A stretch of 64,000 bases of DNA, taken from an uncultured Bacteroidaceae bacterium. GTDB taxonomy: Bacteria; Bacteroidota; Bacteroidia; Bacteroidales; SM23-62. Of the stretch, positions 10,218 to 49,560 are shown in pieces. The stretch covers positions 209,178-273,177 of the forward strand of contig CAVYEL010000006.1 of assembly GCA_963767555.1 (NCBI GenBank), in the 5' to 3' direction. The notes under the pieces were generated by a model. It searched no databases and was not told where the DNA came from. It saw only the letters and a list, made by a program, of their open reading frames with translations. Numbering within the stretch: the stretch's first letter is position 1; each line of letters begins with the position of its first letter. Position numbers and translations under genes: made by a program.

Positions 10218-10273
10218 TACATTGATTTAAAGCGAAAACAAAGATAAATTAAATTTCCTATCTAACGTTTATT

Positions 10274-14095: not shown

Positions 14096-14215
14096 GGGCA
14101 GTAATAAAACCGGTAAAATAACATATTTTAATGTTATTTACGTTTCATTCTAACGAGCTCAAAAAAACTTTATTGCTGTTTATCAGTATAAATATATGTT
14201 AAATAAAATCAGGAT

Positions 14216-15196: not shown

Positions 15197-15279
15197 TTAT
15201 TTTTGGGACGCCGCTTTAAAAGCGTTTGAAAAAAAAATTATATTTGAGAATCTTATAAATAGCTAAAAAAGAGAGAACC

Positions 15280-24339: not shown

Positions 24340-25672
24340 TTAAAGAAGGTTACTTGCCAGTTCTGCCAGGAAGGACCGTTCTCCCTTCACCAGGTTAACA
24401 TGCGCAAATATTTCCTGTCCCCTCATTTTATCAGACAGGTAGGAGAGTCCATTGGAATGTGAATCAAGGTAAGGAGAATCAATCTGCTCAATATCCCCGG
24501 TAAAGATCATCTTGGTTCCCTCACCTGCCCTGGTGATGATGGTTTTAACCTCGTGAGGGGTCAGGTTCTGAGCTTCATCTACAATAAAGAAAACGCGTGA
24601 AAGGCTCCTGCCCCGAATATAAGCCAGGGGTGTGATCACCAGCTTTTCACTCTTGAGCATCTCATCGATCTTTGTGAATTCAGGACTCTGCTGGCTGAAT
24701 TTATGCTTGATGACGGCCAGATTGTCCATCAATGGCTGCATGTAAGGTTCGATCTTTTCTTTGACATCCCCGGGAAGGAATCCCATATCCCGATTGGCCA
24801 GGGGAACGATGGGCCTGGCCAGGAAGATCTGAGTGAACAGTTTGCGCTGGTAAAGTGCCGCAGCCAGGGCCAGGAGAGTTTTCCCGGTTCCTGCCTTACC
24901 GGTAAGTGAAACCAGCTGGACCTCAGGCCTCATCAATGCATCCAGGGCAAATGCCTGTTCTGCATTCCTGGGATCTATACCATAGGCCTTCTGCTTCTCT
25001 ACCCGGTCCATCACCTCATTGAATGGATCATAATGAGCGAGGGCACTGGATTTGCCATTTTTCAGGATATAATACTGATGCGCTGTAGGTTTTATCTCAA
25101 AGTTAAAATCCTGTACCGGTACCCCATCGTATTCCTCGTACAACCTTGATATCAGCTTGGTACCCATCCCCTCAACCGTGGATATCCCCTTGTAAAGTTC
25201 ATCGATATTAGCGATCTTGTCATTCTTGTAATCCTGGGCAGGGATACCTATGGCCTTTGCTTTCATCCTCAGGTTGATATCCTTTGAGATCAGTACCACA
25301 TTTTTGTTCTGGTTCTTGATATGCAGATGTTCGGCAATGGCCAGGATCCGATGGTCGGGTGTATTCTCCGGGAAAGACTTTATCATCTGCTCGGAGTAGG
25401 GTTTGCCTGTTTCAATGGAAAGCAGTCCCATATCGTCTCCGAGAGAGATCCCTCCGTTGAACAGGTCGTCTCCGGATAAGCTTATCTAGCTCACGGGTAA
25501 ATTCCCGGGCATGAAAATTAATAAGGTCATTTCCCCGCTTAAATTTGTCCAGTTCTTCCAGTACAACAATGGGAATGACGATATCATTCTCTTCAAAATT
25601 ATAGATACATTTGTAATCATGCAACAGTACATTAGTATCTACCACAAATATCTTCTTGGCTTTTTTGGGCAT
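24340..25672 (-). CDS. PhoH-like ATPase with N-terminal PIN domain (YlaK-like), one apparent frameshift near 25440-25480
   Basis: PIN-like N-terminus [12 protein letters not shown] in ORF 25412-25672. Walker [20 protein letters not shown] and GDIEQID are in ORF 24340-25431. Confidence 0.85.
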
Positions 25673-25766
25673 GCGAGGATTATTATCGTAATATCGGTTT
25701 AAAATTAGTAAATATATGTTTTATAAAGTGTTGGAAAGCTGTTCATAACCTGTTAAACCCGTGAAA

Positions 25767-26291
25767 ATGAAGGAATCTATGAATCCTGTAATTGACGCAA
25801 TACTAAAGAGAAGGAGTATCAGGAAATACAGTGGAAAAACTGTTAATAAGTCCGATATTCATCTCCTGTTGAAAGCCGGGATGTATGCCCCTTCCGCCAG
25901 AAATGAGCAACCATGGCATTTCGTTGTCATTGATGACCGTGGACTTCTCAACCGGATCCGTGAGGTCCATCCTTATGCTTCCATGCTTTCAGATGCGGCA
26001 TTGGCCATCCTGGTATGCGGGGATGAAAACCTGGAACTCAGCAAAGGTTACTGGCCTGTGGATTGTTCCGCGGCCACGCAAAATATCCTGCTGGCGGCGC
26101 ATGCAATTGGACTGGGAGCAGTTTGGCTGGGTGTTTATCCAAGGCAGGAGAGGCAATCTGCTATCAACGAGATCTTTAAGCTGCCATCACATGTCCATCC
26201 ATTCTCACTTATATCCATCGGTCATCCGGCTGAAGAAAAAGCTGTCCCGGACCGATTCAGGGAAGACCGGATCCGTTGGAATGAATGGTAA
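25767..26291 (+). CDS. nitroreductase family protein
   Basis: ILKRRSIRKY...APSARNEQPWHFVVI...GLGAVWLG motifs. ATG 25767 is preferred over GTG 25761. Confidence 0.8.
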   Translation: MKESMNPVIDAILKRRSIRKYSGKTVNKSDIHLLLKAGMYAPSARNEQPWHFVVIDDRGLLNRIREVHPYASMLSDAALAILVCGDENLELSKGYWPVDCSAATQNILLAAHAIGLGAVWLGVYPRQERQSAINEIFKLPSHVHPFSLISIGHPAEEKAVPDRFREDRIRWNEW

Positions 26292-27601
26292 AGAATTGGA
26301 TTACCAGGATGCCATAGCATTTTTGTTTGACCGACTGCCCATGTACCAGCGGGTAGGAAAGTCTGCCTATAAATCAAACCTGGATACCACACTGGCATTG
26401 GATGAGTATTTTGGTCATCCACACAGGACATTCAGGAGCATTCACATTGCCGGTACCAATGGAAAGGGATCTGTTGCCCATATGATTTCTTCCATACTGC
26501 AGTGTGCCGGATACCGGGTCGGCTTATATACCTCGCCACACCTGACAGATTTTCGTGAGAGGATACGGATAGATGGGAAGATGATACCGGAAGTGAGGGT
26601 TACGGAATTTGTAGAGCAACACAGGGAGATACTGGAGAAACTACACCCCTCCTTCTTTGAGATGACGGTAGCCATGGCTTTTGAATATTTTTCCAGGGAA
26701 GCGGTAGATCTTGCGGTTGTGGAAACAGGGATGGGAGGTCGTCTGGATTCTACCAATATCATCCGGCCGATTGTGTCTGTGATCACCAATATCGGATTTG
26801 ACCACAACCAGTTCCTGGGTGATACCATTTATAAAATTGCTGTGGAAAAGGCGGGCATCATAAAAAGTGGCATCCCTGTTGTAATCGGAGAAACACAGGA
26901 GGAAGCCCGGCTTGTATTTTCCAGAATGGCCAGGGAGAAAGGATGTACCATAACCTATGCTGATCAGGAGATCAGGGTTGACTACTCTACCCAGAGCCTG
27001 CAGGGCAAACAGATCATGCACTTATCCCGGACTGAAGGGCATATAATGGAATCGCTTGAGACCGACCTGAAGGGACTATACCAGCAAAAGAATGTTATCA
27101 CTGTACTGGCGGTTATGGAGCTGCCTAACGACAATTGGTATAAGCATACAGGAAAAGGATGTAAGGAAGGGACTTGCCCATACACTGGATATGACCGGAC
27201 TGAAGGGCCGTTGGGAGATCATTGGTAACAATCCCCTGATAATATGTGACACCGGCCATAATAGAGAGGGTGTAATGGAAGTGATGAAACAGATCCGCCA
27301 GATTCCCTGGAAAAAGATGCATTTTGTACTGGGACTGGTGGATGATAAGGATCCAGGCAAAATCCTTGAGCAATTACCGGTCGAAGCTTATTATTATTTT
27401 ACCCAATCCAGCGTTCCCAGGGCCATGGACAGAGAGAAACTGGCAGCTGAAGGTTTGCGTTTCGGCCTCTATGGACAGATTTGCCCAACTCCTCAAAAAG
27501 CTCTTAAGATTGCCCTTTCCAAAGCAGATCCGAGAGACCTGATCTTTGTAGGTGGCAGTACCTTCGTTGTGGCAGAGGTGTTGGAAAAACCGTATCTTTG
27601 A
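26281..27601 (+). CDS. folC: bifunctional folylpolyglutamate synthase/dihydrofolate synthase, one apparent frameshift near 27100-27230
   Basis: ATG 26281 gives MNGKELDYQDAIAFLFDRLPMYQRVG. Contains HIAGTNGKGS (P-loop) and ETGMGGRLDSTN. The C-terminus continues in ORF 27092-27601. The long upstream extension of ORF 25885-27228 overlaps the nitroreductase and is not coding. Confidence 0.85.
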
Positions 27602-27654
27602 AGGATAAACAGGAATAATTGCGAAACTACTGCCATATTCAAAGGGGAATTCTA

Positions 27655-29603
27655 ATGATTTGCCTGTTGGGAGTTTTTGCTCAACCGGGCCTGTTATTTG
27701 CTTCCGATACCCTCTACCTTGACAGGAATTTTGAGCAGGCTCAGGCCACGGACCATGCCTGGATATATGAGGACAGGAAGCATGATGAGGAACTCCAGGC
27801 TGTCCTGAACAGAACTTTCAAGGAGCATTCCATGCCCTACCTGAATTTTGGTTTCTCCACGTCGGCATACTGGTTGAAGATCGTGATGAAAAATGTGGAT
27901 GATCTCCCCTGGAGATCTACTACCAGTACCAGAACCATTACCTGGATTTTGTAGATATTTATCTGGTGGACCAGAATGATTCTCTACTTACCAAAGGATC
28001 CTTTGGTGCCAAGAGGTTACAACCTTCCTACAAAAGTTTAAAGATGAATCCCGTGTATGATCTTGACATTCCGCCAGGAGGGATCATCTCAATATATCTC
28101 AGGATACAGTCAGACACCCCGCTTCGCATTCCGGTTGTATTCAATTCCGCAGATTCCATGGTGAAAAGGGAAAGAAAGAGGCATGTTTTCCTTGGTTTTT
28201 TCTACGGTATAGCAGGTTTCAGCCTCCTGCTGGTTTTAAGTATCATTTTAATCACACGTGACAGGATGTATGCATATTTTCTGCTGGCATTATTCTGGCT
28301 TATCCTGTACATGATCGCTTTTGATAATCTTTTACCCCGGTGGGTAATCGCTGGCAGACCCGCTTTTATATTGCATGTTACTACAGCCTGCGCTATGCTT
28401 GTTGGATTATTCTATGTTTTATTTGCCCAGCGATTTTTCTCCCAGGAGAAAGCACCATCCTGGGTAAAATCCATATTCAGCATCCTTAAAATACTTTCCA
28501 TCATTTTTTTCGCCTGGTATCTGATCGATTACTACTCAGGAAACAAGATTACGTATTTCTTTTTGCCGCTGCTGATGCTATGCTTGCTTGTAATTTCGAT
28601 GATCTACTGGTTGTCCGGGTCAAGGCTCGCCCGATTCTTTTTCTGGGCCTTTTTCATTCCCCTTGTTGGGGTCGTACTTCAGGCACTGGCCAATTCAGGT
28701 GTGATTTATTCAAATGTACTTGTCATCTACTCTATGAAAGCGAGTTACATGCTCCAGAATATAGTATTTATCATTGCCATCGCGGACAGGTACCTGCTGA
28801 TGCAGCAAAATTTTACAGGGATCCTCCAGGAGAAAGTTGTGGAACGGACCCTGAAACTGGAAGAAACCCTCGAAACTTTAAAATCAACCCAGCAACAGCT
28901 TGTTCAATCAGAGAAGATGGCATCCCTGGGCACACTTACGGCTGGCATAGCCCATGAAATAAATAATCCACTAAATGCCATTAAGGGTGGCCTGTATATG
29001 CTGGAGAATCCTGCTGATGAAGAGTCCAAAGAATCAGCCAGATACATGATCTGGGAAGGTTTTGAAAAGATACGCAAGATCATTAAGGCCCTGATGACCT
29101 TTTCCAAAAGTGATACGGAAAAACCGGTCAAAAGCGATCTGCATGAGATCATTGATAATACATTATTAATTATCAGGTCCAGGTTTGGTGAGAACATAAG
29201 GATTGTTCCGGAGTACCGGTTAAAACGTACCATACCCGTGTTCCCGGATAAACTACACCAGGTTTTACTGAATATTTTTGATAACGCCATTTATGCCATT
29301 CAGCAAAAGGAAGAACAGAAGGATGAATTTGTCAGGATCAGTACCTGGGAAGTGAAAGCAAGAACCATAGCAGAAACACGGGCCGTCATTGAGATTTACA
29401 ACTCGGGTCCTGGTATCCCTGATCAGGATATCTCGAACATTTTCGATCCATTTTTTACTACAAAGGATCCAGGTGAGGGGACTGGATTGGGATTGTCAAT
29501 TTCATATTCGCTTATCAAGGATCACAAAGGGGAAATCGAGGTTCATAATGTTCCCGACGGGGTTTGTTTTGTTATTTCGCTTCCTGTCTCAGTTTCAAAG
29601 TGA
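27655..29603 (+). CDS. 7TMR-DISM-type sensor histidine kinase, one apparent frameshift near 27905
   Basis: N-terminal extracellular domain, then a block of about 7 TM helices. H-box GIAHEINNPL, N-box LNIFDNAIYA and G-box GTGLGLSISY are present. A C4 run at ~27905 restores DDLPLEIYYQYQNHYLDF if read as C5. Confidence 0.8.
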
Positions 29604-29612
29604 TCTCATCTC

Positions 29613-29757
29613 ATGATTACAGATCAACCCTCTATTTTTATATTTGGTATCAGGCTTGATGAGCCGGTAACAACCCTTAACGATCTACTGGTTTCAGCGG
29701 TATGCCTCTATGCTTATTTCCGGCTTACCAGGATCCCGGAAGCCGGCTATTCATAAT
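29613..29757 (+). pseudogene. 5' part of a small membrane-protein gene split by the IS insertion; the remainder probably lies at ~31628-31708
   Basis: ATG 29613 gives MITDQPSIFIFGIRLDEPVTTLNDLLVSAVCLYAYFRL. The downstream frame encoded in the direct repeat reads LFIIAVAFSAVGALVF (TM-like). Family not recognised. Confidence 0.3.
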
Positions 29758-29856
29758 CGCTGTAGCGTTTTCCGCTGTGGGTGCACTTGTGTTCATGAAT
29801 CAATGGAGCATTACATATGTGGCGTAATGGCCATGGATTTCAGTTATATACTCCTT
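29737..29856. repeat. left copy of the ~120-bp imperfect direct repeat abutting the IS (putative long target-site duplication)
   Basis: Hand alignment to 31510-31627 gives about 106/120 identical with 2 single-nt gaps. Ends exactly at the left terminal inverted repeat. Confidence 0.75.
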
Positions 29857-31427
29857 CCTGTTTTCGTCATTGGGAAACCCTGGCTGGATTGACACAGTAT
29901 TTTTCCCACCATCTCCTGCTCCTCAGTCCACTCAAATGGGATGACTTCCCATTGATCGGTCTCCGGGATTTTGATTTTGATGGTATACATGGTCTTGATG
30001 AGTTCAGCCACCCTAGCAGGGCTTAAGGATATCTTCTTCTCAGCTAACCTTCTCTCCACTTCCTTATAAATGGTGTATGCAACAAAGGCAATACATATAT
30101 GGGATTCAATCCTTTTTTCATTTCTATGATAAATGGCACTGATTTTGAGATCTGTCTTCGAAATTCGAAAAGCCCTTTCGATATGCCACAGCTGATTATA
30201 ATCCCGAATAACGTTTTTGGCTGAATATCATTGAATTACTCACGTACCCTTTATGACCATGACATTCATCGTCACCTTCGAATTTCTCGTAGTTAATGTG
30301 GAGGTTCATATCCACCTACGGTTGCTGATAATTGTTGTACCCTCGGTTGTTAATATGGCTCTTGGTAAGCTTTCCCTTGTTCAGATTTTTCTCCAGTCGC
30401 TTAAGACCGCGTTCCCGGTTCCTCCTGTCTCTTTTAGCACGCTTTGCACTGTAACTAACAATCAAACGTAAACCATCTGTCTTTTTGATAACTGAAAAGT
30501 CTCCATCAGCTAATGATAGGGCCAGTATCTGTTCCTTTATCTCATCGCTCTCTTTTTTAATCTGCCACCAAGAATAAATTCGTATTGCTGGGATGTAAGG
30601 TCTTTGATATTCGGAGCAGATAATAATCCCGCATCCGCTATTACAATAGGCTTGGATAGGTCAAATCGCTGTTGAAAATGTTCCAATACCGGAATAAGAG
30701 TGTGTCCTTCGTATTTGTTCCCTTCAAACAGCTCATAACCGAGGGGATAACCATTGGGACCAACCAACAAACCTAGAAGAATCTGGGGATTATGAGGCTT
30801 GCCATCTTTTGAATATCCGGGAATCCGAAGATCATCCTCGTCTTCAGCCTCAAAATACAGCGTGGTCATATCATAGAATACTACCGAGATCTTCCCTCCT
30901 AATACTGATTTGGTATAATCAAAGGCTATCTGCTCCACCTGATCCTTTAAACTCCTGTGAAGCGTATCCATGAACCGGTACACCTTGCTTATATCAATAG
31001 AGATGCCCTTGTAGCGTTCTAGATAATCCACTGTCTTAAGCTTACTGCCCGGGGCTATTATGCGTGTGATCACCAAATGCCGAAACAGTGCTTCTCTTAT
31101 CTCACCAAAACCAATGTCATCAAAGATCGACCCAAATACCCTCTCTGGCCCATCAACCTGAACCTGGCTGGTCTTTACCCGCTTTAAGTTGCTGACAAAC
31201 TCTTTGGTGCTATCACTCCAGAATTCAATACTGGTCTGCCCAATCAGGGTTGGTATGATGGTATAGGCTTTTTTGCGCAGGTAGGCGATCTCTTCCGGAT
31301 CGGAAGAGGAACCGACAGTCTGGGCAACACGATAGCTTCCACTACTCTTATCAATGATCTGCACGCTTATCGTCCCGCTCTTGTTCTTTTTTTCTCGGAC
31401 AAACACCCTTACAAGATAACGGGACAC
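29844..31427 (-). pseudogene. IS1634-family DDE transposase, with 2 frameshifts and one in-frame TAG
   Basis: N-terminus MSRYLVRVFVREKKNKSGTISVQIIDKSSGSY. DDE contexts VVFYDMTTLYFEAE, IVIADAGLLS and YNQLWHIERAFRISKTDLKI. Breaks at the T6 run 30553-30558 and near 30215-30225. TAG at 30316-30318 lies inside YNNYQQP*VDMNLHINYEKF. Confidence 0.8.
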
Positions 31428-31509
31428 CCGAAAATATCAAAATCTAAGACCTATTACACTGATTATCTATGCTTTAAAAAATCACTCCGAAAGGAGTGAC
31501 GAAAACAGG
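29857..31509 (-). mobile_element. IS1634-family (IS4 superfamily) insertion sequence, 1653 bp, degraded
   Basis: Perfect 13-bp terminal inverted repeats: CCTGTTTTCGTCA (29857-29869) and TGACGAAAACAGG (31497-31509). A single transposase reading frame fills the element. The flanking direct repeats abut both ends. Confidence 0.8.
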
Positions 31510-31627
31510 CGGAAGCAGGCTGTTCATAATCGCTGTAGCGTTTTCCGCCGTGGGTGCACTGGTGTTCATGAATCAATGGAGCATACATATGTGGCTTAAT
31601 TGTCTTGATCTCAGCCACATACTCCTT
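31510..31627. repeat. right copy of the ~120-bp imperfect direct repeat abutting the IS
   Basis: Starts immediately after the right terminal inverted repeat. Aligns with 29737-29856. Confidence 0.75.
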
Positions 31628-31800
31628 GCCATTTCTGCCATATTCTTCTATAAAGGTGCTAGGGTCATCATCCTGAGTACCAGACAGAAAACTCCAGACC
31701 ATCTATAAAGGTTTACAAATGGAAACTTTTTGCCGGAGTTTAACTTTAATTCTATATTTGATATGACATTTTATCTTATTAATCTCCTGAACCTGATACA

Positions 31801-32730: not shown

Positions 32731-32805
32731 GGGCGATTAGCTCAGCTGGTTCAGAGCACCTGCCTTACAAGCAGGGGGTCACTGGTTCGAATCCAGTATC
32801 GCCCA
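32731..32805 (+). tRNA. tRNA-Val (anticodon TAC)
   Basis: Hand-folded cloverleaf: acceptor gggcgat/atcgccc, D stem gctc/gagc, anticodon stem cctgc/gcagg with loop cttacaa, T stem actgg/ccagt with loop ttcgaat, discriminator A. No encoded CCA. Confidence 0.9.
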
Positions 32806-32806
32806 C
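32790..32806. repeat. att-like 17-mer copy A (3' end of tRNA-Val)
   Basis: aatccagtatcgcccac. Identical at 32969-32985 and 16/17 identical at 39982-39998. Confidence 0.85.
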
Positions 32807-32817
32807 AATCAAAATCA

Positions 32818-32846
32818 ATCCGATCGGTATTCCGGTCGGGTTTTTT
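32818..32846 (+). terminator. hairpin terminator after tRNA-Val
   Basis: atccgatcgg-tatt-ccggtcgggt stem (two G-U pairs) followed by T6. A near-identical hairpin lies at 41631-41665. Confidence 0.55.
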
Positions 32847-32968
32847 AATATTCAAATCCATGCAAACTTGTTTGCAGTTGGATTTGGATATGAAAACCAG
32901 GCCAAGCCTGTGGTTGATTTTATTGTTAAGACCCCCGGAAGGATCACGACCGAGTTTGCGAGGTCGCT

Positions 32969-32985
32969 AATCCAGTATCGCCCAC
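32969..32985. repeat. att-like 17-mer copy B, inside a degenerate tRNA 3'-half
   Basis: aatccagtatcgcccac preceded by gcgaggtcgct, which resembles gcagggggtcactggttcg of the tRNA. Shares the extra 5' gct with copy C. Confidence 0.8.
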
Positions 32986-33069
32986 CCAGATAACCAGATA
33001 GTTATAGAGATTATTGAACCGTCTGGTTACAATGCGACCTAATGTTAGGCACTGGCCTTTTTCCTTATC

Positions 33070-34348
33070 TTAATTAAATTCTTTGGTTCTTAAATATTTA
33101 TTAATGTATTGTATCTTTTCTTGAGGAATATCAATCTCAGCTGCTATTTTAGACCATTGATTCACTGCTGTTATAACTTCATCTAAAATTGATTGGCTTT
33201 TTTGATTCCAAATTTTTTAGCAAAACCCAATAAATCGTCTTTAGTAAAATTATCATATTTACCATTAATTGATGATTGGTGTACATTTGTCCATGTTCCA
33301 CCTGGACTATATGAAAAACAAATGTCATATGCTGGAGATATTTGCCATTTTCCATCCTTATTCATTAAGAATGAGAAGTTCTTTACATGGTCATCATGAT
33401 TTCTTGCAACGACATTAAATAACATGCGTCTATATTGCTGTTCAAATTGTTTGTATGAAAGTTGAAGCCTTTTCATAACCCTGAATAAAGTTTCATAATT
33501 GCTAGCTTTTTGAATTTTATAATCTATGCCTGCTAAAGCACTGAATGTTTGCATATGAATTTTTTCACCATTATCTGTTCGGTCAAATCGTTTCGTTAAA
33601 AAGTGAAATCTTCCATTTTCTTCATGCAAAGTACTTTCTGAGATTTCAATCCCGGCTTCTTTTGCTAATTTGTAATAAGCAAATTCTATTTTGCCCATAC
33701 CTTCACTTTCTCCTAAGGTTTGTTCATTTGCTCCATCAATTTTCAGTAGCCAATACGAATAACCTTTGGTTGCATGATATCGCCGGGTCTTATTTCTTTA
33801 ATTTTTTTGTTTTGATCTCTTTTAATAGCAATCAAAGCTTTAGCTCTTGCCCCTCCAACGGATGTTCCTATTCTTAATATTTCAGTAAGACTATCTTTAT
33901 CCAAATCAGAAAAGGAAGTTTCTTTCTTATTTTCTAAAACGCTTTTTGCAACTTGTATATTTCACTAATATCAACAAGACTATTATCATCTTCTCTGTGA
34001 TTAGCTGGTATATACTCCAATGCTCCCATTCCTCTTTTACCCACATAAGTTAATCTGTCAACCGGATTAATGTCATCGATTGACAATTCTCTTTGTTTTA
34101 GCCATTCTTTCATCATGACATTACCAAAATCATCTGGCATTGAATCAGATAATAAATAAGGCAAATTGTGAAAGTTGATAGTGATCTCTGTTTGTTTCAA
34201 ATATTCTTTCTTCCGTTGGCATTATAATCGGAGAAGGTTCTATGACTTTAACTATTTCACTATTATATTGAAAAGTAGAACTTCTCTTATCAGAATTCCA
34301 TTCTGCCGTTCCTAATAATTGACCATACAACTTAACTTCTACTATCAT
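33070..34348 (-). pseudogene. hipA: HipA-family serine/threonine kinase toxin, about 4 apparent frameshifts
   Basis: Five collinear pieces read: MIVEVKLYGQLLGTAEWNSD; LPYLLSDSMPDDFGN; GTSVGGARAKALIA; WLLKIDG...GKIEFAYYKLAKEAGI. The catalytic loop NHDDHVKNFSF and SPAYDICFS are present. The C-terminus ILDEVITAVNQWSKIAAEIDIP ends at 33070. Confidence 0.8.
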
Positions 34349-34350
34349 GG

Positions 34351-34668
34351 CTATTTTATTTTTTTAGATGCTCGTTTTCTTTCTGATTTTAATTTCGCTT
34401 TTTCAAATTTTAATTTAAGTTCTAGGTTTTCTCCTACTCTAAATACTGATTCAAAATCTTTTATCCGATTTAATCTTATTAAAATCCTTATTAAACTTTC
34501 AACCGTAGTGGATTTCCCTTGTTCTATCAGGCTAATTGTTGAAACACTTAATCCAACTTCTTCACTCATTTCTTTTTGAGTGAGGTTATGTTGGAGTCGT
34601 ATTTTCTTAAGCCTTTTGCCTATTTCTTTTAATATTTCCTGTTCTGTTAAAAACAACCAATTATCCAT
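34351..34668 (-). CDS. hipB: XRE-family HTH antitoxin HipB-like
   Basis: Intact 105 aa with HTH LKKIRLQHNLTQKEMSEEVGLSVSTISLIEQGK. Its stop is 2 nt upstream of the hipA start. Has a Lys-rich C-terminal tail. Confidence 0.8.
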   Translation of the reverse strand: MDNWLFLTEQEILKEIGKRLKKIRLQHNLTQKEMSEEVGLSVSTISLIEQGKSTTVESLIRILIRLNRIKDFESVFRVGENLELKLKFEKAKLKSERKRASKKIK

Positions 34669-34719
34669 TTTGTTAAATTTAAATATTAAAATGTAAGTAG
34701 TTAAGTGAATAAAAATTAT

Positions 34720-34834
34720 ATAACTATTAATATATCATAAGTTAATGCAAATGATAGTAAAATATTTTAACTATTAAAATATTAGTAGATAATGACCGAA
34801 ATCAGCACATAACTATTAATATGTCATAAGTTAT
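34720..34834 (-). promoter_or_regulatory. putative hipBA operator/promoter region with two 25-nt direct repeats
   Basis: ataactattaatatAtcataagtta (34720-34744) and ataactattaatatGtcataagtta (34809-34833) match at 24/25. Each has ataact...agtta(t/a) dyad ends. A partial copy taactattaaaatatt lies at 34768-34783. The region is 52-166 nt upstream of the hipB ATG. Confidence 0.45.
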
Positions 34835-34968
34835 ATGTGATTAGTCATTTTGGCTTGTGCCTGGATGGTCAAGTGTAGATGAAGCGTGTGAAAGTGATAA
34901 CTGATTAGCATAAGCTGCAAAACCCCTGGCTTAGTGACCATTTGTTGATGTCGCCTTTGAAGCCATTG

Positions 34969-34997
34969 AAAAAGCCCGGTCATTGAGCCGGGCTTTT
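34969..34997 (-). terminator. rho-independent terminator downstream of the fibre-like gene
   Basis: agcccgg-N8-ccgggct stem. On the minus strand it is followed by a T5 run, 23 nt after the stop at 35020. Confidence 0.6.
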
Positions 34998-35019
34998 CGT
35001 AGCTTATAAGGTGGCAATC

Positions 35020-36542
35020 TTAATTAACTTTCGCACCTGAAAAATGGGTATATGCATAATTTGAAGAGGTGTTTCCAGAGACCCGGGCACCAGCATCATT
35101 ACAACTCCCCCATAATTGGGCGGTCTGGCCTGCAGAAAGGTAGAGGGTGATAGAGATACTCACTCCCTGATAAGCTGAACTGGAATAAGCCCATGCACCC
35201 TCATAGTTATTGTTTCCAGCCCTAAGTATAGCATAAATCAGACTTCCTGGAGTCATGTCGATGAAGTATATCACACCATTAAATGAGTATATTCCATCTT
35301 CCGGAGCAGTAAAAGTGTTTGTACTCAGGTTAAAAGCATTTCCCTGGTTTTCCCAAACACTTGCACCAGTGCTGAAATCAACAAGCTTTGAATCAGGGCC
35401 TCCCCAAGTTATAGCTGTGCTTTTCTTTACCTCAAAATAAATTCGATCTTCAGTCAGTGGTTCCCAGGTTGCCAGACCGGTACCATCGGAAGTCAGAACT
35501 TCGCCCTCAGCAGGAGTTCCTCCGGTAATTCTAACCTGTCCAGCTACTTCGAGCGTGGCGCCTGGAGTATCCGTTCCAATCCCGACATTTCCGCCATAAG
35601 GATTCAGATTCAGGTCACCAGCAGTAAAGTTTTGCAATCGAAGATCCTCATCGCCGACATCATACCATAGATAAGCTTTGAAGATATCGTCATCGTACAA
35701 TGACAGGAATATACCTTCCCCGGATGGTGCAGATAAGGATAGCTGTCCCCGGCTGGTGACTGGAGAACCATGCGCATGAATATAGGTCGCCGGGCTGCTG
35801 GTGCCGATGCCAACATTGCCGTATTGTAGTAGATATTGCTGCCTGCTGTCGTCCACTGACTACCAAGGATGGTGGGAGTATCGGTTAAATCGTTGTAACT
35901 GCCACTTGTGGCAACAGTTGCAAATGTTGGTTTGCCAGTGACTTCATTCCAGGTAGGAACATATCCAATGGGTCGGTAGAGTCCATCGTGGTCACCCCAA
36001 CCAAATGCGGTATTCCAGTTTGCAATTAAACCTGATGTAATACCATTCGCAGCATGAGATGTATTCATCCCATCTGAAATTCCATAACCTGCGAGTGTTG
36101 TTGGTTTATTCGTCAAATCTATATAACTACCGCTGAATACATTCCCTGCTGTCTCAGAGTATAAAGCATACGGTACGCTTAATATTTGACTTGTGCCAAT
36201 AATCGTATAGTTTGCTCCACCACTCGGATCCGTTTCGGTTTTAATGTAATACGGTCCACTTGACCAATCAATGGCCGAGAAATCATCACTTGTTGTGCCT
36301 GTTCCAATTTCAATGCTGACCAATCCATTTGCATTTGACTCTGGTGATTGGGTTTCTGCATAAACGACAGTTCCTTCTGCAGAGCCTTGCAAAATACTGA
36401 TTTTCATACCAACAGGAACACTGGTTACAAGGTTATTGCTGTTATTGCGGATTATTGCCTGGTAGCTCATTTTTTCTGGTGACTGGGCGAAGATGCTTGA
36501 TAATAATGCTATGGTTGCGATTAGTGAAAATAACTTTTTCAT
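35020..36542 (-). CDS. secreted fibre-like protein with C-terminal C1q/TNF-like domain, one apparent frameshift near 35822
   Basis: Signal peptide MKKLFSLIATIALLSSIFAQ. N-terminal module MSYQAIIRN...ISILQGS...VYAETQ. Tail-fibre-like YxDLTxKPT and GNVGIGT motifs occur twice each. The C-terminus matches the core of the C1q signature (NQGNAFNLSTNTFTAPEDGIYSF) and ends HFSGAKVN. A GG/GGG indel joins ORFs 35610-36542 and 35020-35856. Confidence 0.6.
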
Positions 36543-36553
36543 TGTTTTGAGAT

Positions 36554-37054
36554 TTATTGGTTTTTAATGATTTTAAATGTTTTGACTACTTCCTGATTGT
36601 TTGTGACTCTCAGAAAATAAGTTGCAGGAGCAAGATGTGCCATTGAAATAGTGGTTTTGATGTCGATCAGTTTTTTACTAATCAAAAGTTTTCCCATCAT
36701 GTTGTAAAGCTGAAAGGACAAGTTTTCGTTTTCAAGGATTTCAACTTCCAAGGTTAGAAGATCAGTTGTAGGATTTGGATAAACCGTACATATTAAATTT
36801 ATGTCTTTGGCTTGTTCAATTCCAACTCCAACTACAACCGAAATCTCGTAAGGTTGTTGTACTCCTTCAGCCACAGAACCATTTGTGCCTGTACTGGTAG
36901 AATAGAATACCTGACCAATGGTATAGCTCACTGAACCACCGCTGCCCGAAGCATTACCCCCTGTGGCTGGAATGGCTTCCTGAGCCTGTAAGTTTACTGT
37001 TAGTCCGATTCCTAACAAGAATACAATACATAGTTTTAATCGTTTTCGTCTCAT
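36554..37054 (-). CDS. small T9SS-secreted protein (type A C-terminal sorting domain)
   Basis: Intact 166 aa with a signal peptide and a GGNASGSGGSVSYTIGQVFY module. The C-terminal Por_Secre_tail-like sequence reads VYPNPTTDLLTLEV...ATYFLRVTNNQEVVKTFKIIKN. Confidence 0.7.
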   Translation of the reverse strand: MRRKRLKLCIVFLLGIGLTVNLQAQEAIPATGGNASGSGGSVSYTIGQVFYSTSTGTNGSVAEGVQQPYEISVVVGVGIEQAKDINLICTVYPNPTTDLLTLEVEILENENLSFQLYNMMGKLLISKKLIDIKTTISMAHLAPATYFLRVTNNQEVVKTFKIIKNQ

Positions 37055-37065
37055 GTTACCTCCTT

Positions 37066-37317
37066 TTAAGAATTTAATTTATGTTGAGTAATAGTAGTGT
37101 CAATCATATTCGGTAAACAGGAAATGGGAGTGGTCCAAACACCACCCCACTTTCTTTTTACCAGCCACCTCGATGGCACAACCAGGGAAATAAAGTGCTT
37201 AAATTCAATGCAGAAACGGATGAACCTGCAACAGGATAAGATGAGTATATAACAATGATAGACAATGCTAACTGCAAATACTGTCTTTGGGAACCATTTT
37301 TTAATCTCTGTTTTCAT
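37066..37317 (-). CDS. hypothetical small membrane protein (possible first gene of the operon)
   Basis: 83-aa ORF with one hydrophobic helix (TVFAVSIVYHCYILILSCC). Its 11-nt gap to the next gene equals the next intergenic gap. No recognisable family. Confidence 0.3.
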   Translation of the reverse strand: MKTEIKKWFPKTVFAVSIVYHCYILILSCCRFIRFCIEFKHFISLVVPSRWLVKRKWGGVWTTPISCLPNMIDTTITQHKLNS

Positions 37318-37563
37318 GACGCTAGACTTAGACTTTGTATAGTGCTAATGTATTGCACAAAAAATCCCTGGTCTAACAGCAATGTATCCAGTTTTGATAA
37401 TTATGTAACGGGATTGTAAAGAATTTCAGAAGGTAGCCATTAATAATACCAACTATATTTGAACTATATATATAGGATTAAGGAATTCGTTTACGCAAGC
37501 GAGCTTGCAGGCATTAGGATACAGCCAGCAGTGGTACAAGTATCCCGATACCCCGGTAAATTG

Positions 37564-38127
37564 TCATTTATAATAATTTATAACCTCTTCCGGACTCTTT
37601 CTGGGGGTTGCTGCCGTGATTGCATCTACACTATTATCAACATTACCAATCCTCAGGACTACCACGGCCTTATAGCCTGAAGGGATCTGAAAACGTTCTT
37701 TATTTTCATTGATATTTCCGGCAGGACTGCCGTATATTCGTGCACCAAGACCAAGTCCGTGTGCGGCTACAAACATACTTTCCGTGGCAAGGCCGCAATC
37801 AAAATCGGGGGTTGTCCCGCTTTCGGATTCCATCCCTGAAATAATAACCAGAACATTGCCGGGAACCACATTATTGATTATCTCCTTCATGACAGAATCC
37901 TTACTGATCACTGTGAACTTCCAGGGCTGTTTGTTCCTGCCACTGGGAGCTTTAATCCCACATCTCAGAACCAGATCGAGTTGCTGATCCGTTACAGGAT
38001 CTGATGAATATATCTTTTCTGAGAATGCCGTTAACAGCGTATTGGTAACACAATTGTCAGTTGTCTGACTGTACAATTCTGAGGTGATACAAATTACGAT
38101 TACGATAAGGGAAAGTATTGTTTTCAT
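37564..38127 (-). CDS. nitroreductase-family protein with N-terminal signal peptide
   Basis: Intact 187 aa. MKTILSLIVIVICITSELYSQ, then APSGRNKQPWKFTVI and GLGLGARIYG nitroreductase motifs. Confidence 0.7.
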   Translation of the reverse strand: MKTILSLIVIVICITSELYSQTTDNCVTNTLLTAFSEKIYSSDPVTDQQLDLVLRCGIKAPSGRNKQPWKFTVISKDSVMKEIINNVVPGNVLVIISGMESESGTTPDFDCGLATESMFVAAHGLGLGARIYGSPAGNINENKERFQIPSGYKAVVVLRIGNVDNSVDAITAATPRKSPEEVINYYK

Positions 38128-38367
38128 GGCTGATCCTATTAAATGATATGTTATATATACTATCCAAAAGATAACGAAAATAATTCATTTATACCCTTCC
38201 CATCCCCAGGAGATCAAAATTGGATTCCAGCATCACCCAAAAAACAAATACAACTCTGAATGGCAACATTTAGGTTTTTTAATTAATGCTCATCCTGGGA
38301 CCACTGGTTAAGTTGAGAATTATGAATTAATTTTAACCATGAAATAATATAGGTGAAAGAAATTGAT

Positions 38368-39975
38368 ATGACATATGATAAAATGATTGCGCAAAAGAAT
38401 ACTAAGATCTTTTTTATATCACTTGGGTTTCTCCTTATGCATGTCCTCGTAAATAGCCAACACCAGCCTTTACTTGTAGTAGAACTGGAAAACACCCAAC
38501 CTCGAAATATTATTTTTATTTTGAGTGATGATCACAGGTATGATTTTATGGGATTTACAGGTGTCTTACCATGGTTGGAAACGCCTGCAATGGATGCACT
38601 GGCCCGGGAGGGGGCATATTTCCCCAATGCATTTGTGACAACATCACTGTGTTCTCCCAGCCGTGCATCAATATTAACCGGGCAGTATAGCCATACACAT
38701 AAAGTAGTGGATAATTCTGCTCCTGCACCCAAAGAATCTGATCTATTTTCCGCAATATCTTCAAACAAAAGGGTATCAAACTTCTTTTTTTGGGAAATGG
38801 CATATGGGAGGCAATACGGATGATCCCCGTCCAGGTTTTGACCATTGGGAAAGCTTCAGGGGACAGGGGGCTTATTATGATCTGACTTTAAATATTAATG
38901 GTGAACATAAAAATTATAATGATTCAATATATACAACTGATCTATTAACAGAACATGCCATTCAATGGCTGAAAGGCAGGGATACCCAAAAACCTTTTTT
39001 TATGTATCTATCCCACAAAGCAGTTCATGGTCGTTACATACCGGCAAAACGGCATTTAGGCAAATATAACGATGTGACGCTTGAATTACCGCCTTCATTT
39101 TTTACTTCCGCACAACCAGTAAAGGGCAAAAGCCATCCGTATGGATATCAGAATTATTTAGGCCCCGATAAAGATCAAATCAAAGAGCCGGCAAGGGATG
39201 AAGACTATTACGGAGAGGGACGGATGCCCGATTGGCAGAAAATGCAGAGAGAAAGCTGGCACGGAGTAGATTATATGTACCATGCACAGCATGTTAATTT
39301 TGAAACCCTAGTAAAAAGATATTGTGAACTGATATTGTCTTTGGACGAAAGCATAGGTAGTATTCTGGAGTACCTGGATAATGAGGGCTTAAGTGAATCA
39401 ACCGTGGTTATATATATGGGAGACAATGGTCACTCATTCGGTGAACACGGATTAATCGACAAACGCCATTTTTATGAGGAGTCGGCTAAAGTTCCATTTT
39501 TAGTGAGGTGTCCAGAAATAATAGACGGAGGACGGGTTATTAAAGAAATGATTCAAAATATAGATGTTGCCCCAACGATATTGGAATTAGCCGGTATTGG
39601 GAAACCGGACCAGATGCAAGGGATGTCAATTGTGCCAATTCTAATAGGAGAAAAGACATACCTGGAGGGATAAAATATTTTATGAATATTATTGGGAAAA
39701 TAATTATCCTCAGACTCCGACAATGCATGGTGTTCGTACGGATAGATATAAACTAATCCGATACCATGGAATCTGGGATACAAATGAATTTTATGATCTT
39801 GAAGAAGACCCTTACGAAATGAATAACCTGATTGCAAGTCCCCGGCATCAGAGTTCTTATTAAGGAACTCACAGATGAAATTTACGATTGGTTGGAAAGC
39901 ACTGGCGGCATGCAAATCCCATTAAAAAGAACGGGACAAAGAGGTGGTGATCATAGAAATCGCGGAGTTTATTAG
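38368..39975 (+). CDS. Cys-type sulfatase, about 3 apparent frameshifts
   Basis: Signal peptide, then [12 protein letters not shown] and the formylglycine motif [12 protein letters not shown], and [12 protein letters not shown]. Collinear pieces are 38353-38823, 38804-39673, [32 protein letters not shown] and a final frame ending at TAG 39973-39975. Confidence 0.8.
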
Positions 39976-39981
39976 CTTGCT

Positions 39982-39998
39982 AATCCAGTATCACCCAC
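39982..39998. repeat. att-like 17-mer copy C (right boundary of the islet)
   Basis: aatccagtatcAcccac matches the tRNA 3' end at 16/17. It is preceded by gct as in copy B and starts 6 nt after the sulfatase stop. Confidence 0.8.
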
Positions 39999-40050
39999 AA
40001 CAAATCCTCGTGATAATTGTATAAATATTAATGTTAACTAAATGGCTTAA

Positions 40051-40766
40051 ATGAAAACTATATTTCACGAGGCATCGTCACGAGGACATGCAAATCACAG
40101 CTGGCTCAGCAGCTACCATACATTCAGCTTTGCTGGCTATTACAACCCTGAACGGATGCACTTCGGAGTACTTAGGGTATTAAATGATGATACGGTTGAT
40201 GAGGGAATGGGATTTAATACCCATCCACATGATAATATGGAGATCATATCCATTCCACTGGAGGGCGATCTGGAGCATAAGGACAGCATGGGCAATGTCA
40301 CCCTTATCCGTGAGGGAGATGTTCAGGTGATGAGTGCGGGCACAGGAATTTACCACAGTGAGTACAATAAGAATGATGACAGGAAAGTAAAATTCCTTCA
40401 GATATGGGTAATTCCGAACAAGAAGAATGTGAAAGCCAAGATACGATCAGATCTCTATGAGTGATATTGCAAGGCAGGATGAATTTTACCAGATCCTTTC
40501 TCCGCATCAAGATGGACAGGGTGTATGGATCCACCAGGATGCCTGGTTCCATATTGGTGAATTTACGGCAGGGACCAAATCAGCCTACTCATTAAATAAA
40601 GAGGGAAACGGAATTTATATTTTTATACTTGATGGCCAGGTTGATATAAACAGGATCAAAATGAACGAGCGAGACGGTCTGGGGATCACCGAAGTTAATT
40701 CATTCGACTTTTCCTCTATACACAGATTCAAAAGTCCTCTTAATGGAAGTTCCAATGCAGAATTAG
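40051..40766 (+). CDS. pirin family protein, about 2 apparent frameshifts
   Basis: SRGHANHSWLSSYHTFSFA...GFNTHPHDNMEIISIPLEG...HSEYN cupin metal-site motifs. Continues in ORF 40457-40822. The true C-terminus DSKVLLMEVPMQN is in a third frame and ends at 40766. Confidence 0.8.
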
Positions 40767-40955
40767 TGGTCATCACACGCTGCCATAGAAAATACCTTCT
40801 ATTAGGTAAGAAAAACCCTTAAATTTTTTCTCCTTTATCAGTTTTGACAGTTTTAATAGTTCACATTTTGTTTAATATATATTTAATAATTTGAACAAAA
40901 ACGAGAATTGCATGTTTATAGTATAGATAATCATTAACATTAAAACTTAAGCAAA

Positions 40956-41600
40956 ATGAAAAAATTAATCAATTTTATCAGTTTAGGAGGTTTAGCCGTG
41001 GTTCTGATGGCCTCTACATATATTCTGGATGAAGGAAATGAGCCTTCTTCATCTTCAGCAAGCGCTGTCAGCCATGTTGTTTTGGATGAAGCATCATCCC
41101 TCATCTGGGAGGGTGGTAAGATAATCGGAGGAAAGCATGCCGGCACCCTGGCCATAAATGAAAGTTCACTTTTTTTCGATGGCACCAAACTGGCTGGAGG
41201 GTCATTTGTAATGGATATGACTTCCATAAAAAATACAGATCTGGATGAAGGATCTGCAAAAAAACTCGAAGGGCATCTAAAATCTGAAGACTTTTTCGGC
41301 GTTTCAAAATACCCAACTTCTACGTTTAGTATCTCAAAGGTTGAGCCTGGAGATAACCTTGATGAATACAATGTCACAGGTAACCTGACCATCAAGTCAA
41401 CTACCCTGCCAATATCTTTTCCTGTTGTAATTAACTGGGATGCTGACAGGGCCATTGCCAAAGCAAAGATCTCAGTGGATAGGGCAGATTTCGATGTTCG
41501 ATATGGTTCCGGAAGGTTTTTCGATGGACTGGGCGACAAGGCGATCAAAGATGAATTTACCCTGGATGTAACAATCGTTTCCGAAATGCTAAGTAACTGA
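40956..41600 (+). CDS. YceI-like polyisoprenoid-binding protein
   Basis: Intact 214 aa with signal/TM. HLKSEDFFGVSKYPTSTFSISKV...VTGNLTIKSTTLPISFP...FDVRYGS is typical of the YceI fold. Confidence 0.8.
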   Translation: MKKLINFISLGGLAVVLMASTYILDEGNEPSSSSASAVSHVVLDEASSLIWEGGKIIGGKHAGTLAINESSLFFDGTKLAGGSFVMDMTSIKNTDLDEGSAKKLEGHLKSEDFFGVSKYPTSTFSISKVEPGDNLDEYNVTGNLTIKSTTLPISFPVVINWDADRAIAKAKISVDRADFDVRYGSGRFFDGLGDKAIKDEFTLDVTIVSEMLSN

Positions 41601-41630
41601 TCTGAGTCCAATTTCGCCAACAAAAAATTC

Positions 41631-41665
41631 AACCCGACCGGTATTCCGATCGGGTTGTTTTTTTT
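41631..41665 (+). terminator. rho-independent terminator after the yceI-like gene
   Basis: aacccgaccgg-tatt-ccgatcgggtt stem followed by GT8. The sequence is a near copy of the hairpin at 32818-32846. Confidence 0.6.
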
Positions 41666-42762: not shown

Positions 42763-44230
42763 CTAAACAGAAGCAGGTGAAGGAATGTCAAATTCAGTCC
42801 TGCGTGGATCCGCAAGCAATTGGTTGGCTTTCGCTGAATGTTTACCAGTGAATTTTTCTGTTTCACCATCAAATTCCAGCCAGGGTCCAATCACATATTC
42901 GGCTTTGTCTTCCGGTACGCCCATGCCATCACGGGCAATGGCGTGAATTTTCATAAATTCTTCGTAGGCCAATGTATTGTCCCCGAATTTGCCGGCTTTT
43001 TCGTTAAAAGGTACTTTCTTACCCAGCCGGTAGGAAATATTCATAAGGTGTCCCATGGTAGTGCTGAAATGGGCATCTGCCATATTTCCGTTGGCCATCG
43101 AGGGATCGTTGGCACGACATGCGGCAACGAAACTTCCATAAGCCCCTCCCGGCCTGATCTCAACCTCTTTAATCTGGACATTACGAGGTTGACTGCCGTT
43201 ATGGGAAATGTATTCTCCGTCAATAAGCTTGCCACCATCCTCAAAATAAAAGCGGTTGGTCACTTCTCTCTGATATCCTTCGTAATTGACATTCCTGACA
43301 TTGAAGAAAACCTGTTGCCCGTTTTTAAATTCTGCAATGGCAAACATTGTATTGGGTGTCTCGCCCTGGTCGTCCCAGGAGAACCTTCCCCCCAGAGCCA
43401 TAACACGAACTGGATGCGTATTTTCAACCTCGGCATCAAGCGCCCAGTAAGCTACATCAAGTTGATGGGTTCCCTGGTTGTTCATCTCTCCATTTCCTGT
43501 TTTCCAGAACCAGTGCCAGTTATAATGTACTAGGTTCTTGTGGAAATTGTCAATATCGGCCGGCCCTTTCCAGATGTTCCAGTCCAGGTACTCCGGTGGG
43601 GTGGAATTGGACTGGAAACCAATGCCATCTCGTGGCTTACAGGCAAATCCATGAGACACTACCATTTTACCATACTTGCCAGAGCGAACATCGGAAACTT
43701 GCCTTGCCCATTCCGGGTCGCTTCGCCTCTGGGTGCCATGCTGAACAACGATACCGTATTTTTCTGCAGCAGCCAGTGCCACCCTGCCTTCATAAACATC
43801 ATGGCTTACGGGTTTTTCGACATAGCAGTGTTTTTTTGCCTGTGCGGCCCAGATGACCATAAGTGAGTGCCAGTGATTAGGCGTGGCCACGCTAATGGCA
43901 TCTATGTCTTTCATCTCAAGAACTTTGCGTACATCAGTCAGGCCTTTTGCCTTGTAATTTATACCCTCTCTTTCATTAAACTCGTTTACACGGTTCTCGA
44001 GAAGCTGACTGTCCGGATCAACAAGAAAGGCAACCTCCACATTTTCCTGTCCGCTGAATCCATTGATATGATTTTTACCACGGCCATTTAATCCACAAAC
44101 AGCTATCCGGAAACGGTCATTGGCTCCCAATAATTGAAGCATATGATTTGGGACTGAATCCTATCCCGCCAATGGTTATCCCTGCAGTACCAATAGCAGC
44201 CTTTTTGATAAAATTTCTTCTGTCTGTCAT
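42763..44230 (-). CDS. Gfo/Idh/MocA family oxidoreductase with TAT signal, one apparent frameshift at ~44140
   Basis: ATG 44230 gives MTDRRNFIKKAAIGTAGITIGG...SYASIIG. A GGG/GG indel joins it to ANDRFRIAVCGLNGRGKNH (Rossmann) in ORF 42763-44142, followed by EKP. Confidence 0.8.
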
Positions 44231-45918: not shown

Positions 45919-46701
45919 TTAGTAGGGTTGAAATATAGTTTTTTTACACTTACTGAGGGTGGGTTTTACACTTCCGGCAATAACACCGCTGTATGTGGGT
46001 CCCCACCATCCTTTGGCTGTATTGCACCGGGTCCAGGAGCCACCTCGCAGAGCGACTACACTGTCACAGACCACTATAAATTCCCAAACATTCCCAACCA
46101 TATCATAGAGCCCATATGGATTGGGAGGTTTCTTGCCAACAGGTTTTGTACCGGTAACAGAATTTTCCCGGCACCATAAATAGTCAAGGTCAAATTCATC
46201 GCCCCAGTAGAATTTTGTCTCTGCATCAGCCTGGCAGGCATATAGCCATTCCGATTCTAAAGGTATTTCTACTCCGGCCCATTCCGTGTAGGCTTCGATA
46301 TCTGAATAGCTGATAAAAATGACCGGATGATTCCCCGATTGTTTGATCCCCGGGTTTCTCCAGGTAAACTTATCACCTGATTTTTCGGCATCAGTCAGGT
46401 AGCCGGTCTCCTTAACAAAATTGCTGAATTGCCGTACCGTTACCTCAGTTTGTCCCATCCAGAATCCATCCGAGATAATAAATTCCTTCTTCCTGAATGC
46501 GGTACTGTCTCCTATCTCAAATGGCTCTTCCAAAACAATTTTTCCCGGAGGTACCCATACAAATTTCATGTTGTCAACAGGATTGGTCCATACATGCGGA
46601 CCGGGGTCATTTACTGAAAGGAATAGTCCTGACATGATGATCAGCAGCATTATGAATAGCACATTTTTCATATCCATGAGATAATTAAATGATGATTTCA
46701 A
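45919..46701 (-). CDS. SUMF1/FGE-fold (formylglycine-generating enzyme family) exported protein
   Basis: Intact 260 aa with signal/TM. Contains FWMGQTEVTVRQF, HPVIFISYSDIEAY, GLYDMVGNVWEF and LRGGSW motifs. Confidence 0.7.
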   Translation of the reverse strand: MKSSFNYLMDMKNVLFIMLLIIMSGLFLSVNDPGPHVWTNPVDNMKFVWVPPGKIVLEEPFEIGDSTAFRKKEFIISDGFWMGQTEVTVRQFSNFVKETGYLTDAEKSGDKFTWRNPGIKQSGNHPVIFISYSDIEAYTEWAGVEIPLESEWLYACQADAETKFYWGDEFDLDYLWCRENSVTGTKPVGKKPPNPYGLYDMVGNVWEFIVVCDSVVALRGGSWTRCNTAKGWWGPTYSGVIAGSVKPTLSKCKKTIFQPY

Positions 46702-49551: not shown

Positions 49552-49560
49552 GATGAAATA

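Follow-up and report, generated by a model that had tools for sequence, protein, structure and literature searches.

Why should the 3' end of a tRNA gene reappear, several times over, in the DNA that follows it? This question is raised by the tRNA-Val locus of an uncultured Bacteroidaceae bacterium, which lies within a stretch of 64,000 nucleotides from contig CAVYEL010000006.1 (hereafter the window). An initial annotation, made from the sequence alone, had described three direct copies of the last 17 nt of tRNA-Val that bracket an integrase-less islet of ~7.2 kb, and had proposed site-specific integration at the tRNA 3' end, probably twice in tandem. The core of this proposal is supported by the places at which homology to related genomes breaks and by a pair of relatives representing the occupied and the empty state of one site, while its anatomy calls for correction. 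We consider it probable that the 9 kb past tRNA-Val form an accretion array, built by serial site-specific integration at the T-loop of the tRNA gene or at earlier copies of its end.

The repeats themselves are real and exceed chance. A pattern search recovered the last 17 nt of the gene (copy A) exactly in copy B and with one mismatch in copy C, as had been reported; with an expected number of 0.01, three matches were reached in none of 100 dinucleotide shuffles. Both B and C are preceded by GCT, where the tRNA has TCG, which bears out another detail of the initial annotation. The count of three was too low, as a decayed copy E is present at 41605 and a probable further tRNA-end copy, D, at 38224. 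Copy D shares the G->A variant of C as well as its 3' flank ACAAAT, and it is situated between the divergent nitroreductase and sulfatase genes; about 0.09 matches of this kind are expected by chance per window. Copy E is followed by a hairpin and a T-run homologous to the terminator flank of A (nhmmer E = 7e-6 and 9e-6). All copies, in the order A, B, D, C and E, lie on the plus strand and 3' of tRNA-Val within 9 kb. Copy C starts 6 nt past the stop codon of the sulfatase gene (39973-39975), as previously described, and copy E starts 4 nt past that of the YceI gene. Because D splits the interval between B and C, the presumed single islet of 7.2 kb comprises at least two modules, and the array runs on beyond C to E at 41.6 kb.

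The locus was then compared with relatives, which were collected by scanning one genome per species with the 3-keto-disaccharide hydrolase encoded upstream of the tRNA, followed by protein look-ups. The loci recovered are syntenic and come from uncultured Bacteroidales. Locus L001 (~85% nucleotide identity) remains collinear with the window from the tRNA across the 162-nt spacer up to copy B, at the end of which homology breaks. Past this point, an aldo/keto reductase (AKR) gene, a LamG-like gene and a fucosidase gene replace everything from hipBA to the sulfatase, before L001 rejoins the window at the YceI and AKR genes. L001 lacks copy C, pirin and copy E, there being no E in its YceI-AKR spacer. 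As pirin, which lies to the right of C, is also missing there, C cannot be the edge of the variable region for which it had been taken.

A second relative, L091, provides the counterpart to L001. Designating the different flanks that follow the 17-mers as types Z, X, Y and V, the order in L001 is A, Z, hairpins, arm, B and X, and that in L091 is tRNA (A), Z, hairpins, arm, B1, terminator V, a 144-aa gene, an XRE gene, arm, B2 and X. L091 thus has a 1.66-kb module between two 17-mers that L001 is without, in front of the same flank X, and therefore the two loci constitute an occupied and an empty version of the site at B. No integrase gene is present in this module. Flank X, a terminator hairpin, stands directly 3' of the tRNA in four relatives (L004, L083, L085 and L086) and beyond the distal repeat elsewhere, as integration predicts for an ancestral flank that has been displaced. 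In the window, the tRNA is directly followed by type Z, not X, and flank Y after copy B has its homologue behind the distal repeat of L004 (nhmmer E = 0.001). That repeat is 47 nt long, extends from the anticodon loop of the tRNA, lies 1.9 kb downstream and encloses an AKR gene and a YCII gene. The AKR of L004 (11322-12371) is 78% identical to the product of window gene 56155-57132 (+), which is located 23 kb downstream of tRNA-Val; within the repeats in one genome and far from the tRNA in the other, this gene is therefore islet cargo in only one of these two.

Other relatives end at the very same place. The short-read contigs of L002 and L005 stop 9 nt past the tRNA and that of L003 inside it, as is expected at a variable or repeated site; repeats or strain heterogeneity may have interrupted the assembly here. 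In the contigs of P0002, P0011 and P0015 the hydrolase is followed by an LGT gene; L083 alone extends as far as the tRNA.

In every 17-mer copy, in the window and in the relatives, identity to the tRNA begins at AATCC of the T-loop, and the 5' side is not tRNA. Williams reportedly described the T-loop and the anticodon loop in 2002 as the classical sublocations of crossover. The copies might instead be remnants of old tandem tRNA-Val genes that possessed terminators of their own and lost their 5' parts by deletion, and indeed A, B, E and the copies of L004 and L091 each precede a terminator-like hairpin, which is absent at C and D. However, at least seven 17-mer copies from four genomes share the same T-loop limit, which independent deletions would not yield. 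Moreover, B-type copies carry a conserved non-tRNA arm on their 5' side, and the cargo of the relatives differs exactly at the copies. We therefore regard descent from tandem tRNA genes as extremely improbable. Integration accounts for the hairpins as well, since terminator-like structures in all four flank types are to be expected if each attachment site of an element (attP) rebuilds a working tRNA gene.

The segment from A to B (162-179 nt) is conserved and collinear in the window, L001 and L091. The pair A-B does not record a recent event in the source genome; it is a conserved unit common to these loci. It includes a putative element-derived arm of ~60 nt directly 5' of B, which shows no resemblance to tRNA and recurs in front of the 17-mer in L001 and L081/L092 as well as at copy B2 of L091 (88.6% identity between the window and the B2 arm). 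The structure of the spacer hairpins is kept in L001, in which 7 pairs are changed on both sides (RNAalifold, 3 sequences). Over the first 129 aligned columns of the spacer, the window is 93.5% identical to L091 and 68.6% identical to L001, as against 82% and 85%, respectively, in the adjacent gene region; the pattern of identity in the arm hairpin is opposite to that of the spacer. The spacer thus has a history different from that of its neighbours. Such a mosaic fits exchange or independent acquisition of element ends, and it also fits deletion between two arm-bearing copies, turning an L091-like into a window-like state.

Conservation of the unit made up of the ~60 nt and the 17-mer, in which the stem CGACC (32947-32951)/GGTCG (32962-32966) of the window is replaced by CGGCC/GGCCG in L001, could also mean that the 17-mer forms part of a dispersed repeat or of a small structured RNA with no more than a resemblance to a tRNA end. 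We rate this as very improbable. A Hamming scan at <=3 mismatches found no further copies in the 64-kb window, and across ~1.3 Mb of related loci copies at this threshold occur only at tRNA-Val loci. The 20-mer GCTAATCCAGTATCRCCCAC had no matches in viral contigs and a single match in JGI metagenomes, on the 1.7-kb contig L081, which corresponds to copy B2 of L091 and hence to the same kind of locus. An Rfam search at E <= 1 over 30-42 kb of the window returned no family beyond the tRNA.

A gene next to the B2 arm was considered as a marker of the element. It encodes an XRE regulator of 142 aa (L091 1223-1657 and 328-756) and belongs to a widespread family, with 118 clusters at 70-100% identity; in L093 (6122-6556) its neighbours are TPR and caspase-like genes, and tRNA-Val is not close by. 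This occurrence and the unrelated context in L093 rule it out as a marker, and the gene as such seems to travel from one context to another.

How would serial integration have generated the array? Integrative elements carrying the tRNA 3' end in their attP would time and again have recombined either with the T-loop region or with an end copy already in place, presumably through a tyrosine integrase. With each integration, the tRNA would be rebuilt with a 3' end and a terminator supplied by the element, while the previous 3' end and its flank would be displaced downstream, and the same-strand 17-mers A, B, D, C and E would be left behind as module boundaries. The recombinase genes would since have been lost or would never have been carried; deletions at a later stage would have taken away recombination genes and most of the arm DNA, twice reaching as far as the stop codon of a gene that was kept. 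The modules would now be att-bearing, integrase-less remnants that resemble cis-mobilisable elements (CIMEs), and they would be either fixed or dependent for any movement on an integrase from another locus. We infer that a tyrosine integrase was the agent, in which order the events took place and that the modules are immobile at present.

Several observations weigh against this scenario. Pfam detected no integrase, excisionase, relaxase, transposase or transfer gene among the islet open reading frames (ORFs) scanned, in agreement with the initial annotation, or among 20 other ORFs of the window, and none was seen in L001, L004 and L091 when ORF translations and gene tables were inspected for recombinases. 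Hence an integrase is kept by none of about eight modules from four genomes, an unusual outcome if simple decay were at work. Neither an excision product, a matching attP nor a related element with an integrase came to light, one scan of genomes and one of metagenomes having been made. Furthermore, an empty site joining 32806 to ~39999, which the initial annotation had named as a check, was not present in any relative examined. In L001, YceI and AKR are adjacent without E, a poor fit with E being the junction of two elements, and in L091 the module may be taken to have entered at B instead of the tRNA. The case for copy D consists of 14/17 matches and a short flank. Finally, no significant similarity to the arm of B was detected upstream of C, D or E. 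Because C and E directly follow intact stop codons with no B-like arm in between, the element-derived arms of these copies are missing or never existed.

Some of these points would be explained if the A-B unit were a docking platform, at which an integrase encoded elsewhere inserts and removes small integrase-less cassettes, in the manner of an integron or of CIMEs mobilised in cis or in trans. Past the collinear unit, the three genomes continue with Y (window), X (L001) and V (L091) and with different cargoes. The insertion at B in L091, the small size of all modules (1.6-5.2 kb) and the uniform lack of a recombinase would agree with such a mechanism, as would the seven spacer hairpin pairs changed on both sides and the stop codons abutting C and E. 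As in integrons, small modules end in a site-like repeat beside a fixed platform, and two stop codons abut the site. Unlike an integron, the locus has neither intI nor attI, an imperfect palindrome of the attC type is missing at C, D and E, gene orientation is mixed and the sites are derived from a tRNA. Moreover, no integrase was found that could be inspected, and the decay of D and E (3-4 mismatches) means that at least these sites are not maintained; C, D and E also lack the conserved arm. The covariation comes from three sequences only, and Rfam recognizes nothing but the tRNA. Moreover, the same maps would result if elements had inserted serially at the tRNA and the Z element had come last. 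On balance a docking platform is unlikely. If it were true, the locus would represent integron-like gene capture built on a tRNA-end mimic, and its importance would be greater if the consistent absence of an integrase reflected a trans-acting capture system and not decay.

A reading of every long ORF of the window in translation disclosed no recombinase. The sole gene of a mobile element lies outside the array and encodes a DDE transposase of the IS4 type, in broken form. It lies in a segment of ~2 kb (29600-31700) that is absent from L001, L002, L004, L085 and L086, and this segment is thus an insertion sequence integrated just upstream of the hydrolase/tRNA-Val locus. Scans of viral contigs with the XRE protein of L081, the C1q fibre protein and HipA retrieved nothing close. 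By blastn, 32807-40050 had no match in phages and only weak gene-level matches in plasmids, namely to hipA and the sulfatase gene. The features of the locus are compiled in Table 1.

Table 1. Positions of the tRNA-Val gene, the copies of its 3' end, their flanks and the neighbouring genes in the window.
Feature	Position	Strand	Basis and remarks
IS4-type DDE transposase, two fragments	29844-31436	-	Pfam DDE_Tnp_1
tRNA-Val(TAC)	32731-32806	+	ARAGORN; Rfam RF00005, 73.9 bits; sole tRNA gene placed in the window
Copy A, last 17 nt of tRNA-Val, AATCCAGTATCGCCCAC	32790-32806	+	Pattern search; role of attL core
Flank type Z, intrinsic terminator hairpin (32817-32842) and T-run directly 3' of the tRNA	32807-32849	+	Common to L001 and L091
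Long hairpin (32850-32889) and small hairpin (32898-32910) in A-B spacer	32850-32910	+	RNAalifold, alignment
Conserved arm of ~60 nt adjoining copy B on its 5' side (putative P arm derived from an element)	32908-32968	+	Sequence comparison
Copy B, exact 17-mer AATCCAGTATCGCCCAC	32969-32985	+	Pattern search; homology to L001 stops here
Flank type Y, hairpin AACCAGA...TCTGGTT (32992-33028) after B	32986-33030	+	nhmmer
hipA, three fragments	33183-33698, 33934-34200, 34145-34348	-	Pfam HipA_C 1.3e-41, Couple_hipA 7.9e-9
hipB	34351-34668	-	Pfam HTH_3 6e-12
Secreted C1q-like fibre protein, one frameshift	35020-36542	-	Pfam C1q 3.7e-5; ORFs
Protein with C-terminal sorting domain of the type IX secretion system (T9SS)	36554-37054	-	Pfam Por_Secre_tail 2.5e-12
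Nitroreductase with signal peptide	37564-38127	-	Pfam Nitroreductase 1.6e-14
Probable copy D, ATTCCAGCATCACCCAA	38224-38240; with flank aaaACAAATaC to 38252	+	3 mismatches to C
Sulfatase, three frameshifts	38353-39975	+	Pfam; orthologues of relatives
Copy C, gct + AATCCAGTATCACCCAC	39979-39998 (17-mer 39982-39998)	+	One mismatch, G->A at position 12
Pirin, frameshifted	40051-40822	+	Pfam; not in L001
YceI	40956-41600	+	Pfam; also in L001
Decayed copy E, AGTCCAATTTCGCCAAC	41605-41621; with Z-type terminator (41630-41657) to 41665	+	4 mismatches; Hamming scan

The cargo listed by the initial annotation, i.e. hipBA, an operon for a C1q-like fibre, a nitroreductase with a signal peptide and a sulfatase, was confirmed by Pfam. 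It is distributed over the modules as follows: hipBA, the fibre operon and the nitroreductase gene in module B-D (5.2 kb), the sulfatase gene alone in module D-C (1.76 kb), and the pirin and YceI genes in module C-E. Gene orientation is mixed in the array, the genes of module B-D residing on the minus strand. The AT-richness ascribed to the hipB region was found as well, with a GC content of 0.26-0.33 over 33000-34750 as compared to ~0.40-0.47 in the flanks. However, only hipBA deviates, whereas the remaining cargo (0.37-0.50) is similar to the flanks.

In L090 and in the contig with P0122 (81% identical), the sulfatase gene is located divergently beside a gene for a Gfo/Idh/MocA oxidoreductase. 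The window has this oxidoreductase gene at 42763-44230, 2.8 kb to the right of C, with the order of the two genes swapped and C, pirin, YceI, E and AKR in between. Since the relatives keep the two genes side by side, the sulfatase gene of the window must have been relocated; it represents a single-gene module that has moved and no part of a coherent 7-kb element. In L090 (1-3012), a 20-nt spacer past the sulfatase gene, tcccatcGATCCAGgAaCCA, is loosely similar to the 17-mer. A gene for a formylglycine-generating enzyme (FGE-sulfatase, Pfam 4.3e-37) is present at 45919-46701 (-), 6 kb from the relocated sulfatase gene, and its product may mature the sulfatase.

Four genes of the array are frameshifted, namely hipA and those for the fibre protein, the sulfatase and pirin. 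Frameshifts were likewise found in the core genes folC (25873-27601), phoH (24340-25720) and a histidine kinase gene (27619-29603), three genes that were checked directly and are intact in relatives at 79-100% identity. Many further core genes appear as abutting ORFs, such as porU (10274-14137), a murF-like gene (17033-18143) and the gene for an ftsX-type permease (47159-49560). Single-base frameshifts thus occur window-wide, with roughly one per gene of 1.3-2 kb in the three checked, and the gene breaks are therefore no sign of islet decay. Indel errors in the assembly are the likeliest source.

The array is a known kind of structure, in which tandem accretion at a tRNA gene leaves CIME-like remnants. 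The closest published case is the ssrA (tmRNA) gene of Dehalococcoides, where tandem islands arise by insertion in the T-loop, are bounded by 20-bp direct repeats of the 3' end and are hypervariable between strains; a conserved motif unrelated to the gene precedes each repeat (PMC3146451). Of these islands, 16 possess a serine-recombinase module (dsiB), and some islands without it have been proposed to be cis-mobilizable (PMC3146451). The locus studied here shares with these arrays tandem repeats of a 3' end (17 nt in this case), the T-loop, a motif on the 5' side, variability and modules without an integrase. In contrast to them, the target is tRNA-Val, none of the modules has a recombinase, the modules are smaller (0.16-5.2 kb) and the phylum is Bacteroidota. 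In CIMEs of the ICESt1/ICESt3 family, attL and attR are kept, the integration and transfer genes are lost, and elements lie in tandem at the 3' end of the target gene (PMC5704250). The modules described here likewise retain att copies (A, B and C intact, D and E degenerate), and integration and transfer genes were not found among the ORFs scanned. Streptococcus is known to have a resident or incoming integrative and conjugative element (ICE) whose integrase matches, and experiments there have demonstrated mobilisation in cis (PMC5704250). Unlike there, no partner element or integrase was seen here, and an origin of the modules from ICEs or from integrative and mobilizable elements is inferred only. 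Partial 3' copies of tRNA genes mark the far end of integrated DNA and are a general origin of tRNA fragments (PMC9897764). Typical tRNA islands are single, measure 9-23 kb or more and carry an integrase gene, which is expected next to an att end. The present locus differs in having a five-copy array of small modules and no integrase gene at such a position.

The locus is a hot spot of integration at tRNA-Val in a lineage of uncultured Bacteroidales about which little is known. It provides a worked example of how tandem accretion and erosion would leave a toxin-antitoxin pair, a surface fibre, a sulfatase and pirin behind with no recombinase. Extra copies of a tRNA end, because of which short-read contigs of the relatives would break at this tRNA, are moreover useful markers to delimit accessory DNA in metagenome-assembled genomes.

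Upstream of the locus, the window also contains a T9SS cluster (8985-16812) with genes for PorV and PorP/SprF, both confirmed by Pfam, a frameshifted PorU gene in four fragments and a GldJ-like gene, the latter two being assigned by reading ORF translations. Such a cluster would be consistent with the presence of a T9SS-sorted cargo protein in the islet.

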